A DNA stretch of 64,000 nt from Octopus vulgaris. Taxonomy: Eukaryota. The stretch covers positions 96,596,001-96,660,000 of the forward strand of contig OX597824.1 of NCBI GenBank assembly GCA_951406725.2, given 5' to 3'. Positions 5,669 through 60,011 of this stretch are shown here, piece after piece. The stretch's first letter is position 1, and every line of letters starts with the position of its first letter. The translations under genes and the position numbers were made by a program. The notes under the pieces are model-generated. The model was not told the DNA's origin, did no database searches, and saw nothing but the letters and a program-made list of their open reading frames with translations.

Positions 5669-5936
5669 GTATCAATCTGTTGATTCACTATGGGCAATAA
5701 ATTATAGGACTCAATACAAATGTTGAATACTCTTATAACTGAAAGGTTCCAATTTCCTGTACTCAGTTACTCGTTCCGATCATCAACCGGGTTCTCATTC
5801 CTAAAGTATTTTTCGCTGATATTATTATTATTATTATTGATATTATTATTTATTTATTTATTCAAGGCACTGCCTAGAATTGAACTCGCAATCTTGGGGT
5901 TAGTAGCACGCGCTCTTAACCATTACGCTAATGCCC

Positions 5937-5996
<60 letters not shown>

Positions 5997-6007
5997 GCAA
6001 TAATAAC

Positions 6008-6062
<55 letters not shown>

Positions 6063-6169
6063 GCAATAATAACAATAATAATAATAATAATAGTAATGAT
6101 AATGATGATGATGACAGCAAAAAATCCGATAGGAATGAGAATCCAGGGTTGGGTTCAAAATCCTAGCAG

Positions 6170-6215
6170 GACACCTGATGAAGGCTGGAGAGTATATCAG
6201 CCGAAATGTTATGGT
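6170..6215 (+). ncRNA. hammerhead ribozyme motif, same family as 54766, degenerate 3' part
   Basis: GACAC-CTGATGA-A-GGCTG gagagtatat CAGCC-GAAATGTT; perfect 5-bp stem II; stems III and I mutated. Confidence 0.65.
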
Positions 6216-7269
6216 AACAACAAACAAGATGAGGACAGATATCCATCAAATGTAAATAATGTAAATAAGGGGCTGGTGATGTTCTGAAACATCATCATCA
6301 TCATCATTGTTATAATGATTATTTTTGATATCTCTATCCTCGCCGTCATCCTTGTAGTAGTAGTAGTAGTATTTGCAGCTCTCTCTCCCTTGCATACACA
6401 CTCACACCAATACTCACACACACACACACACAGACACACACACACAGACACAGACACACACGCACACATACACACACGTAGACACGGACAATTTCGATCG
6501 GCTTCCGTTATTCGGACAAAGGTGAGAAGGAGGAGAGGGAAAGGGAGTAGAAGGGTTTTGGTGGCGGGGAGGGGGGCATGGCTGTATCCACCCATCCGCC
6601 ACCCCGAATCGCTACCCTAGCCAAAACTAAAACTAAAACTAAACATAAAAAACCTCCAAAACAAAACAAAAAAATATCTGAAGCCATCCGCCCTCCCCAA
6701 TCCACATCAGCACCCATAACCACCCCTTAACCACCCGACAACAAACGAATGGAATTTGGTCAATCATTACCGACCCACCCGCCACCCCGAGATATATTTG
6801 TTATCAAACTGCAACCCTCTCCATGCAACATCACTAAATCCTCCTCCGCCTCTTCCTTCATCTCCGCCTTTTCTGAGACCCTCACCCTCACCCCTCCCGT
6901 CTCCACCCCACCACCTCTCCCCATCAACACGCCCTCTGCCACCTCCCCCCACCCCGCTTCTCTCTCCCTCTCCGTTAATCCAGCCGTAATTACGTAGATT
7001 AGTCCATCGTCCTGTCACCCGACACTCTTAATCATCTCCCTCTTTATTAACACAACTCTCACACTAAATAGATTTGTACAACAAAAAAACCTTTTTTCGC
7101 CAAAAAAAAAAACTCACCACCGCCACCGCCACCACCGATGACACAAACACTACCGCCGCCGCCTCCATCATTAACCGCCGTCACCACCATCATTGCTCCC
7201 TGTCTTTCGCTTGTTCACTCTGCTTTTCTCTCTTATTATTCTTCCGCCTATCTATCTATCTATCTATCG

Positions 7270-49841: not shown

Positions 49842-49877
49842 CTTTCTGAAGAAGAGCGTAGGCTCGAAACGTAAAAG
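49842..49877 (+). ncRNA. minimal type-I hammerhead ribozyme motif, apparently intact
   Basis: CTTT-CTGAAGA-A-GAGC gtag GCTC-GAA-ACGT-A-AAAG; perfect stems I and II, palindromic stem III, GUA triplet (cleavage after 49873). Confidence 0.85.
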
Positions 49878-49992
49878 ACTTTTTCTATTCCTGAGTGTTA
49901 TACTAATACATTTGTTTGTTTTGTACACCACCTGTCTTCGTCTTTTGTTTTTTTTCGTAAACTCTCCCTATATATATTTATTTTATAGAAGG

Positions 49993-50104
49993 AGCTTCTA
50001 CAGGACTAGAACTGTTTCATTTAAATGAAATCATCAGGAAGCTTCCTGATGATTTCATTTGAATGATTTCATTTGAATGAAACAGTTCTAGTCCTGTAGA
50101 AGCT
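49993..50104. ncRNA. two divergent hammerhead motifs sharing the palindromic centre GAAGCTTC
   Basis: Plus: AGCTTC-CTGATGA(50046-50052)..GAA-ACAG ttctagtc CTGT-A-GAAGCT. The mirror image lies on the minus strand from 50043 to 49993. Stem II is weak and AT-rich. Confidence 0.65.
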
Positions 50105-50186
50105 CCTTCTATAAAATAAATTAATTTACTCTGCTATGTATTGAGTACCTTATTTACTGTGGTTAACCCCGACTCAACCCGGGACC

Positions 50187-52107: not shown

Positions 52108-52716
52108 GCATCCTTTTTGTCTCGAGAAACAATGGAGTTGCGCATAGAATAATCTAGTCCGGTTTTTACATTTCATGTCCTAATACATTTCCTGCTGTGG
52201 CTGTGTAGTCCTATCCTGGACAAACACTCCCTCTGGCAGGTGCCGCAAATGTAGCGAAGACTTTGCCTGGCTGGTTGTAATGTCACATATATACACATCA
52301 ACGTATATATACATATGTATATCCATATATAATGAGAGTAGGTGGTGAGCGTATTTGTGAGCGCGTGTGTATGTGTGTATGTGAGTATATTTGTTTCTAG
52401 TTGTCGAGTTGTTGATTGTTTCGGTACAATGACCTCTTCAGGACTGATGACGAGAAACCATTGAAGCGAAACAATCTGGATTTTGTCAACTCTGACTGAA
52501 TAAACAGAAAATACTCAGCAGTGAAACTGCATTTGGTGGGGAGGTTCGGCTACCGTTGTTTGACTATTGGATCGAAAACGCATGTGTGTCTGCTTGTCTG
52601 TCTGTCTATATATAATCAATATGTACACACACACACACACACACATACCTACATACATATATACATAATACATACATACACACATACATACATACACACA
52701 CATATATAACATACAT

Positions 52717-54182: not shown

Positions 54183-54604
54183 TTTGTATATATATATACG
54201 ACGGGCTTATTTCAGTTTCAGTCTACCAAATCCACTCACAAGGTCTTAGTTGGCCCAAGCTATAGTAGAAGACACTTGCCCAAGGTGTCTCGTAGTGAGG
54301 CTGAACCCGGAACCATGTGGTTGGTAAGCAAGCTTCTTATCACACAGCCACGCTGCACCTATATATAAGACATTACTCACAATGTCTTACTCCTTTATTT
54401 AAATGATAGCTTTTTACGCCAACAACTTTTTTTGTATGTAGCAACTCTAAGATTGTTGAAATTTTAAATAATTTTATGTTGTAACATACTTTAATCATAT
54501 TTTTGCAGCTCTGTTTTTCCTTGCAGTTGAAGATCAGAACTACAAATCCTCCAGAAAACGCTACTAAATCTCTGAAATTTTAATATATTTTATGTCTTAT
54601 TTAC

Positions 54605-54676
54605 GGGCATATGGCGTAGAGGTTAAGAGCGCGGGCTACTAATCCCAAGATTCCGAGTTCGATTCTAGGCAGTGAT

Positions 54677-54680
<4 letters not shown>
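54605..54680 (+). mobile_element. tRNA-derived SINE head with (AAT)n tail; copies at 5866-5937(-) and 59887-59962(-)
   Basis: A-box TGGCGTAG(A/T)GG, B-box GAGTTCGATTC, anticodon-like arm GGG ctactaa CCC; acceptor stem does not pair. Confidence 0.8.
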
Positions 54681-54738
<58 letters not shown>

Positions 54739-54765
54739 CAACAGCAGGTTCGAAATTCCCCACAA

Positions 54766-54811
54766 GACACCTGATGAAGGCTGGAGGGTATATCAACCGA
54801 AACGTTGTGTT
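54766..54811 (+). ncRNA. minimal type-I hammerhead ribozyme motif (tRNA-head-linked family)
   Basis: GACAC-CTGATGA-A-GGCTG..CAACC-GAA-ACGT-T-GTGTT: stem I GACAC/GTGTT, stem II with one mismatch, palindromic stem III, GUU triplet. Confidence 0.8.
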
Positions 54812-55478
54812 AACAACAAACAAGATGAGGACAAACAAATATGTCAAATGCAAATAATGTAAATAATGTAAATAATGTTGATAATTCCACATGTCTTAAA
54901 TATAGAACTGTATTTTATGTCTTTGCAGACACACGGCGATGGCGTGCGAAGAAGACGGCGGAGGAGGGGTGGGAAGAAAGACGAACGAACTTATCTGACA
55001 GCGCAACACAAAGCCTCTGCTGCAGAAGGACATATATATATGTATATATATATATACATACACATACACGCAAATACACACACACACACAAACACACGTA
55101 TATATATGAACAGACACACACCACACACACGCACACATATATATATATATATATATATGCATATATGTATATATTTATGAGATAAACGGAATAAAAGATG
55201 ATAGACAGATACATATATACATGTGTGTGTGTGTGTGTGTGTGTGAATAGATACAACTGAATAGGGAGAGAAAAAGAGGGAAGGAAAAAAGGGTGCGTTG
55301 TGGGGGTGGGGGTGGGTGTTAAACAGCGATTCCTGTTTTGTCTGTTTTCCACCTAAAAATATTACACACCACCATTTTGCTTTCAGTAACCGACTGATCA
55401 ACACAATTATTACCACCGCCGCCGCCATGACTACTACTACTACTACTACTACCATCACCACCACCACCACCACCACCA

Positions 55479-59806: not shown

Positions 59807-59891
<85 letters not shown>

Positions 59892-60011
59892 TTACTGCTT
59901 GGAATCGAACTCGGAAACTTGGGGTTAGTAGCCCGCGCTCTTAACCACTACGCCATATGCCCGAAAAAAAAGTGCCTTATGAATAAGAACCCAGGTTCGA
60001 CATTTCTTCAA

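Follow-up and report, generated by a model that had tools for sequence, protein, structure and literature searches.

A Penelope-like retrotransposon of Octopus vulgaris with a tRNA-like head in its pseudo-LTR: a candidate for transcription by RNA polymerase III

Introduction

A composite repeat made of a tRNA-like head, an (AAT)n tract and a hammerhead ribozyme (HHR) occurs three times in a 64,000-nucleotide stretch of the Octopus vulgaris genome (contig OX597824.1, positions 96,596,001 to 96,660,000 of the forward strand; hereafter the window, with positions counted from its first letter). This composite is almost certainly the pseudo-long terminal repeat (pseudo-LTR), with inverted arms, of an autonomous Penelope-like element (PLE) of the Penelope/Poseidon type, to which it was assigned by domain criteria. 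Autonomous retrotransposons are described as using RNA polymerase II (Pol II) or co-transcription, and short interspersed elements (SINEs) as using RNA polymerase III (Pol III) (PMC10886601). We propose, with a probability of about 0.55, that in the octopus an autonomous element swapped its Pol II promoter for a captured tRNA gene, purged Pol III terminators over its 2.7-kb unit and became its own SINE factory. As to the parts of this proposal, which we judge from the sequence, Pol III very probably makes at least the short copies, and we lean, less firmly, towards its making the full-length RNA as well.

The autonomous element and its open reading frame

The assignment to an autonomous element comes from the sequence next to the head. 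In several copies, the head is directly preceded by a conserved stretch that gives, on translation, the end of a GIY-YIG endonuclease, and a piece of this end yielded 4952 candidates in the genome (2.8 Gb, 227 contigs). BLAST placed the head behind the stop of the open reading frame (ORF) in 27 of 30 endonuclease-picked loci, mostly at +31; the first 12 nucleotides of the head were visible in two of the other three, and one lacked it. The unit, about 2.7 kb long, runs from head, (AAT)n and ATG through hammerhead, body and tail, reverse transcriptase (RT) and GIY-YIG endonuclease to the stop, about 31 nt of spacer and the next head; it occurs singly, as partial tandems and with inverted arms, and full-length and tandem copies are loci L372, L373, L376 and L385. 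The ORF itself (about 2.4 kb) starts at the ATG of a linker and passes through the hammerhead, the body with its 9-nt in-frame repeats and the tail, which together form its first ~55 codons, into an N-terminal domain, the RT and the endonuclease. Its N-terminus, as encoded by the hammerhead and body, aligns at 26/77 identities (E 7e-6) with P0003, an 847-aa protein that was predicted independently and is one of three relatives (P0001-P0003) at 55-68%; in most of 30 loci the tail passes directly into the N-terminal part of the ORF.

Since the head lies behind the ORF stop and the hammerhead encodes the ORF start, the composite is the pseudo-LTR of this element. The sequence-only reading had seen in it a free-standing SINE/retrozyme chimera ending in a self-cleaving terminus, and both halves of that view fall: the same head belongs to an autonomous element, and the hammerhead lies inside the start of an ORF. 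A wholly independent chimera of this sort, with a flipping head and spread by circular RNA, would recall the schistosome Sm-alpha repeat in joining a tRNA head to a hammerhead within ~330 bp (PMC6765202, PMC2770079), and short copies do number thousands. We consider it very improbable, given the head in the autonomous element, the internal and protein-coding position of the hammerhead, the lack of a 5'-end peak at the cut site, the inversion of whole arms and the lack of a separate short-copy subfamily in the five motifs compared.

Homologues of the ORF number in the thousands, with 2923 of the 7999 scored reaching E<=1e-20, the closest named ones being uncharacterised barnacle and beetle proteins. 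A 569-aa open piece matched RVT_1 at E 2.7e-6 with 27.7 bits, under the 29.6 cut-off, and the family profile gave weak matches to telomerase RT and group II-like RTs. The GIY-YIG-type motif was read by eye; Pfam returned no GIY-YIG match on the 569-aa piece, and some homologues carry PF01541. The endonuclease has a CxC in its core and two His and lacks a linker finger, unlike another PLE family of the same genome. As a CCHH motif without a CX2-5CxxC linker finger marks Penelope/Poseidon, the finger being a mark of Neptune/Nematis (PMC8557442), the lack of the finger places the element in the Penelope/Poseidon type. An ORF with RT and C-terminal GIY-YIG endonuclease, the CCHH motif, pseudo-LTRs, an inverted arm with a tail and a minimal HHR near the ORF start, all expected of this type, are present; partial tandems are seen in L372, L373 and L376, and 4 of 30 N-terminus-picked loci have an ORF end, head and body upstream. 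Relatives of the ORF were not found in viral contigs. Among metagenomic relatives the A/B-box pattern occurred near the ORF end in 0 of 72, under a strict pattern and with many contigs too short, so that the clade as a whole does not share the head.

Another partner was considered and rejected: an abundant PLE family beside locus L003 (11,859 candidates) had the hammerhead or body in 1 of 30 loci, which was the source locus itself, and served from then on as a control. It is one of two further, very abundant PLE families with long open frames in this genome (L061-L090 and L382-L384; 11,859 and 12,420 candidates); they contain many near-identical 727-aa frames and are apparently much younger than the family studied here.

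Abundance and co-occurrence of head and hammerhead

Head and hammerhead were searched separately over the genome, a check that the sequence-only reading had itself named, adding that mostly independent occurrence would speak against a composite. Exact matches numbered 4043 for a 24-mer of the HHR and 5148 for a 20-mer of the head, with none for the reversed controls. From the first 69 listed head matches, 63 were analysed (60 loci on C1; the 6 omitted were already among the HHR-picked loci): the body lay co-oriented within 700 nt in 50, an inverted arm upstream in 37, and one or the other arrangement was present in 57. Conversely, 18 of 30 HHR matches had a head no more than 800 nt upstream (14 direct, 4 inverted only) against 0 of 206 background windows, these 30 having been taken in position order, so that some are two arms of one insertion. 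Order and spacing are fixed in 50 of 63 heads.

It would still be conceivable that head and hammerhead have nothing to do with each other and are brought together by a shared preference for (AAT)n targets, as 12 of the 30 HHR matches have no head within 800 nt and some stand behind (AAT)n-tailed ends of long interspersed elements (LINEs). We give this next to no weight: the fixed order and spacing recur in the autonomous element, the 12 body-less cases that were read show no head with another conserved body, and copies that lack the head can be accounted for by truncation or by a LINE that inserted into the tract (L115). LINE 3' ends or fragments with (AAT)n tails, which we take from their motif to be R4/Dong-like, lie inside the AAT tract in L100, L101, L115, L200 and L205, where they part head from body.

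Exact 20-mers were found 5148 times for the head and 1038 times for the ORF end, with equal retention (21/59 and 17/46), which gives about 14,000 heads (5148/(21/59)) and about 2,800 ORF ends (1038/(17/46)). For hammerhead arms the corresponding figure is about 70,000 (4043/(6/108)), with a several-fold margin, and ORF 5' ends gave 365 candidates. All these sizes are rough, as exact-match retention was measured in loci picked by other parts of the element.

The tRNA-like head and the 5' ends of copies

Judged against the usual A- and B-box consensus, the head carries both boxes at tRNA positions. Its best match is tRNA-Arg(TCG), with 51 identities over ~76 columns, in a comparison with 40 ARAGORN predictions from 30 loci, which is not the full tRNA set. 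ARAGORN run on the window, and Rfam run on the window and on 54560-54930, called neither the head a tRNA nor the HHR a hammerhead. The view of the head as tRNA-derived sequence of Pol III-promoter type, already taken in the sequence-only reading, is thus upheld as a prediction from the boxes and the likeness to tRNA-Arg.

The ends of copies agree with such a role. Among 63 copies, the 5' end falls within 18 nt inside the head in 8; of the other 55, 44 end within 20 nt round its start; further up, 5 of 11 end in the next 20 nt, and beyond that the rate is ~0.25% per nt. Expressed as rates (coordinates in this count are 1 nt off), 5' ends fall at 4% per nt at the head start, 0.7% inside the head and 0.25% in the ORF. 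The cluster holds with and without an inverted arm, most copies have kept both boxes intact, and the full-length copy L372 begins exactly at the AC of the head. Of the seven among 30 N-terminus-picked loci that have a complete direct head upstream, three start at the head and four run into a preceding ORF end. Upstream of the 63 heads we found a short fold-back in 18, the native spacer in 6, only the shared GCCCAC in 6 and other sequence in 33.

Alternatively, the head might be an inert passenger, the short copies being 5'-truncated products of a long RNA and the hairpin or palindrome at the head start stalling the RT or annealing the cDNAs. Indeed, the native junction forms an imperfect hairpin and the 18 fold-backs repeat the first bases of the head; short and ORF-linked copies have no diagnostic non-CpG differences in five motifs, and RNA depth lacks a strong step. 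We nevertheless find a passenger head improbable, because the same clustering is seen in copies that lack an inverted arm and in those whose inverted arm is broken at unrelated places in the body, because the boxes are intact in most copies and because the scarcity of TTTT described below would be left unexplained.

As to the status of the short form, no diagnostic non-CpG variant above 20% separates it from ORF-linked copies in the five motifs, and on this evidence it does not stand out as a SINE lineage of its own. It has the tRNA-related head with A and B boxes that defines a SINE2, but a SINE2 is a separate non-autonomous lineage sharing only the 3' tail of its partner, while the short form is in structure the repeat of that partner.

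Scarcity of TTTT on the sense strand

A run of four T is the terminator of Pol III. Its scarcity on the sense strand of an element read by Pol III was predicted ahead of the count, which then gave 43 TTTT against 183 expected by composition in 148 aligned segments (85 kb); a first pass had given 18 against 125. The runs that do occur are scattered over 30 bins along the 2.7-kb unit, and no site is present in more than 3 of the 20-53 covering copies. Synonymous codon shuffles expect 3.5-4.7 TTTT per ORF, whereas L152 has none (P 0.004) and L169 has one; for three further copies, each with 1-2 private TTTT, P(0) is 0.005-0.013. TTT is not depleted. The controls are not depleted: in related metagenomic ORFs (79 loci, of which 72 with at least 1 kb aligned) TTTT was observed 644 times against 576 expected, with 1 of 72 having none, and two other PLE families of the octopus genome gave observed/expected values of 6/6.6, 5/4.6, 16/12.5 (two near-identical copies) and 7/7.0.

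Which polymerase makes the RNA

The life cycle that we propose would run as follows. A small tRNA-Arg retroposon ending in an (AAT)n tail was probably captured on a single occasion and became the head. Pol III would start a few bases before the head and, meeting no TTTT, read the ORF into the next repeat, giving an RNA that would be both mRNA and template. Each 3' or solo repeat would hold a promoter and an RT-binding region and give an RNA of ~330 nt, to be inserted in SINE-like fashion by the protein of the element, which would account for the start of most copies at the head. The endonuclease would, to judge from PAc (PMC11167929), nick both strands of AT-rich DNA ~10-13 bp apart, and two cDNAs from two internal sites, one with and one without the tail, would join head-to-head, a step in which the palindrome GCCC-AC-GGGC at the start of the head would help. 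Two copies of the minimal hammerhead would be needed for folding.

The chief alternative is that Pol II makes the mRNA, that the head is a tRNA-SINE which landed in the pseudo-LTR, that Pol III serves only the short solo repeats and that the lack of TTTT is due to chance. The four of seven long copies that extend upstream of the head fit it, as do the Pol II-type internal promoter used by Penelope of D. virilis (PMC2377424) and the single relative among 72 with zero TTTT and no head, and it avoids the translation problem discussed below. It has to face, however, the absence of shared TTTT over 2.7 kb, the non-coding part included, while TTT is normal, and three ORF-bearing copies that start at the head. 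We hold this alternative possible but unlikely.

A number of points weigh against full transcription by Pol III and have to be set beside the arguments above. As the same four loci continue upstream of the head, long templates often began further upstream, which would be explained by tandem read-through or by a Pol II promoter further up; the palindrome at the head start may itself concentrate junctions. Translation of an uncapped Pol III RNA is unexplained, and the processivity of Pol III is said to forbid autonomous elements (PMC10886601). Every ORF copy seen has stops or frameshifts, and therefore the family may be inactive. The TTTT test concerns one family (n=1), and its decayed single copies contain 0-2 private TTTT at P 0.004-0.22 each; the closest metagenomic relative, L291, has an ORF without TTTT, no head and a T-rich 3' untranslated region, so that chance zeros occur. 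The near-terminators TTTNT, TTNTT and TNTTT are not consistently depleted, and G4 is low relative to composition (23 vs 87), but not relative to the codon null. Finally, depth in RNA-seq rises only ~1.4-fold at the head, and read starts or ends accumulate neither there nor at the cut site.

The RNA data are three apparently unstranded runs of one study, with ~6% of each run covered. Depth climbs smoothly to the 3' end; in the deepest run it is ~10 where the ORF begins, ~1,160 over the head and 3,700 over the body, a profile that looks like host transcripts embedding old copies and that speaks for neither polymerase. Neither starts nor ends stood out in the three raw runs or in one contig set, and among the sequencing runs listed as containing the stretch, which carry five organism codes, there is no RNA run on record. 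The joints listed include neither a back-joint at the cut site nor an intron-like joint in the repeat.

Inverted arms, tail and target duplications

Fifty-four head-to-head pairs were compared. The tail of ~33-34 nt is present on one arm in 48, on neither in 5 and on both in 1 (P about 2e-9); a flank word of at least 8 letters is shared in 32 of 52 pairs against 90 of 2648 mismatched flanks, and the arms have the same hammerhead N7 variant in 47 of 53 pairs against 35.6 expected. An inverted copy plus a tail is a signature of PLEs (PMC8557442), and for PAc both strands were found to be nicked, with reverse transcription from two internal sites that bound the tail (PMC11167929). The head-to-head pairs are the inverted second arm typical of Penelope insertions, consistent with the PAc result. 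The sequence-only reading had compared the flips with the inverted 5' structures of PLEs, and in this it is borne out by the one-armed tail and by target duplications that flank pairs; a head that flips by itself, as it had also put it, does not agree with the data, in which a whole inverted arm is joined head-to-head.

The hammerhead

The hammerhead was read by eye against the description of minimal HHRs (PMC4209133). It is of minimal type I: loop 3 is missing and AACGUU forms a palindrome, as in the PLE hammerheads that are predicted to act as dimers (PMC4209133). In the 103 arms compared, the core and stem II contain a single non-CpG position of strong variability, the free position N7 (T 71, A 30); the 3' hammerhead columns are more variable, partly due to ungapped matching. 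Monomer folding gave no support (z-scores 1.08 for the HHR, 0.43 for the head and 0.18 for the tail), as expected of a minimal HHR. No peak of 5' ends was seen at the predicted cut site, within ~5 nt of which 6 of 172 arms end, and thus cleaved RNA is not the main template, as is also the case for PAc. Nor does the suggested retrozyme cycle, with copies ending at the cut site, fit these ends; a retrozyme would moreover be a tandem unit delimited by cut sites and devoid of promoter and ORF, while here both a head and an ORF are present.

Other hammerhead-like sequences were noted in the window. A second, different minimal hammerhead lies at 49842-49877 (+; CTTT CTGAAGA A GAGC-GTAG-GCTC GAAA CGTA AAAG) and is likely the end of another PLE family. 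Two hammerhead-like cores stand back to back on opposite strands (52419-52441, -; 52444-52471, +). The near-perfect inverted repeat at 49976-50121, with ~60 bp per arm and CTGATGA..GAAAC cores on both strands, is either similar to a miniature inverted-repeat transposable element or another head-to-head PLE remnant. At 60400-60470 (+) a GGCTG..CAGCC stem is followed by GAAA, with TCATCG/CGATGA flanks, resembling a hammerhead minus its CUGA box.

Copies in the window

Features of the three copies are collected in the table. Sequence matches at all three sites confirm much of what the sequence-only reading had reported: the same head beside the same HHR, co-oriented in copy 1 and inverted in copies 2 and 3, a GUU site ending at 54806 and a shared AACAAACAAGATGAGG..AATGTAAAT tail behind copies 1 and 2. 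One identification changes, since the GGTTC(G/A)A motif taken for a B box sits in the first ORF codons, and the true B box is that of the head. Copies 2 and 3 are partly eroded head-to-head pairs; copy 2 has a further inverted linker, and its head is therefore part of a whole inverted arm. None of the three ribozymes is intact, as copy 3 ends ahead of the cut site, stem I of copy 2 is broken and stem II of copy 1 has a mismatch.

Table. Positions of the parts of the three copies in the window; percentages are identities to copy 1.
Feature	Position	Strand	Remark
Copy 1, left target-site duplication, 12 bp	54587..54598	+	identical 12 letters at 54912-54923
Copy 1, span between the duplications	54603..54911		
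Copy 1, tRNA-Arg-like head, 78 nt	54603..54680	+	A box 54612-54622, B box 54657-54665; probable internal promoter for Pol III
Copy 1, (AAT)n leader	54680..54744	+	32-nt linker with ORF ATG deleted, by comparison with other copies
Copy 1, hammerhead stretch	54745..54830	+	
Copy 1, first PLE ORF codons with GGTTCGAA motif	54745..54765	+	frame open from linker ATG through HHR to tail in L169/L152
Copy 1, minimal type I hammerhead within ORF	54766..54811	+	predicted cut after 54806; stem I 54766-54770/54807-54811; core CUGAUGA 54771-54777; stem II 54779-54783/54794-54798, one mismatch; GAAA 54799-54802; loop 3 absent (palindromic AACGUU)
Copy 1, body with in-frame 9-nt AATGTAAAT repeats	54812..54878	+	end point of tail-less arms
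Copy 1, ~33-34-nt Penelope tail extension	54879..54911	+	runs on into ORF in long copies
Copy 1, right target-site duplication	54912..54923	+	
Copy 2, inverted arm	5784..5938	-	head (~5938-5866, 89%), AAT tract, linker (5818-5784)
Copy 2, direct arm	5939..6268	+	AAT tract, linker with ATG (6135), degenerate HHR (6170-6215), body, no Penelope tail
Copy 2, hammerhead stretch	6152..6234	+	87%
Copy 3, inverted arm	59813..59963	-	head (59963-59887, 91%), AAT tract
Copy 3, direct arm	59964..60047	+	linker, HHR truncated before cleavage site
Copy 3, hammerhead stretch	59992..60047	+	86%

The repeat search over the window was dominated by microsatellites. A different tRNA-SINE-like repeat lies just upstream of copy 1 (54200-54350, -) and recurs in many of the loci fetched. 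A U2 snRNA match at 31574-31773 (+; 117 bits), whose degenerate 3' end passes into (TA)n, is probably a pseudogene.

Relation to known elements

The closest relatives by architecture are the Penelope/Poseidon PLEs, such as PAc of Anolis (PMC11167929) and Penelope of D. virilis (PMC2377424). Shared with them are a single ORF for RT and C-terminal GIY-YIG endonuclease, pseudo-LTRs in partial tandems, an inverted 5'-truncated arm, a tail of 30-40 nt at one end, a minimal HHR overlapping the ORF start and AT-rich targets. The octopus element differs in that its pseudo-LTR contains an (AAT)n leader and a head with A and B boxes derived from a tRNA, that 5' ends cluster at this head and that no TTTT is shared. 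The mapped promoter of Penelope is Pol II-like and accompanied by an intron in the 5' untranslated region (PMC2377424). In addition, the ATG of the octopus element precedes the HHR core instead of lying at stem II.

Schistosome Sm-alpha and Sj-alpha are short repeats of high copy number in which a hammerhead comes after a tRNA-derived Pol III promoter. By description (PMC6765202, PMC2770079), they are SINE-like tandem repeats that code for no protein, their HHRs are canonical, and no autonomous partner with the same head has been identified; the octopus HHR is minimal, protein-coding and part of an autonomous element. The TRIMp3 elements Cassandra, Helenus and Ajax likewise have a Pol III promoter derived from a small RNA in their terminal repeats, for which an origin by SINE insertion was proposed, but they are short, non-autonomous LTR elements, and their autonomous partners are said to need Pol II (PMC10886601). 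The octopus carrier is a PLE that encodes its own RT and endonuclease: in place of a short non-coding LTR element with a primer-binding site and polypurine tract, we see an internal 2.4-kb RT-endonuclease ORF and PLE-type ends. Non-LTR retrozymes resemble it in bearing a type I HHR in short repeats and in their suspected mobilisation by PLEs, but, in the account given of them, have no promoter or ORF and are tandem from cut site to cut site (PMC7761336). The octopus element is not so built.

Octopus also reportedly has tRNA-derived SINEs named OK, OR1 and OR2, which are said to have been described by Ohshima and Okada in 1994. The short form could be one of these, or could be catalogued in Repbase or Dfam as a SINE or Penelope, and the family as a whole may well be catalogued already under one of these labels. 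In a search confined to the open-licence literature, neither a tRNA-headed PLE nor an autonomous element driven by Pol III was found. The parts of the octopus element thus have precedents (Sm-alpha, Cassandra/Helenus), and the whole is without one in the literature searched.

Implications

A single PLE family accounts for an estimated ~14,000 heads, and for hammerhead arms in the tens of thousands, in this genome, and its pieces can readily be misannotated as SINEs. Even with an mRNA from Pol II, a PLE pseudo-LTR amplifying as a tRNA-headed SINE has no counterpart in the open-licence literature searched. If the proposal of transcription by Pol III is true, this would be the first Pol III-driven Penelope element, and an ORF read by Pol III within a 2.7-kb unit would break the rule that divides retrotransposons between Pol II and Pol III and would raise the question of how an uncapped RNA makes RT. 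A single element would then be both LINE-like driver and SINE, which would offer a direct route from an autonomous element to a SINE and a possible origin of tRNA-plus-hammerhead SINEs of the Sm-alpha type.
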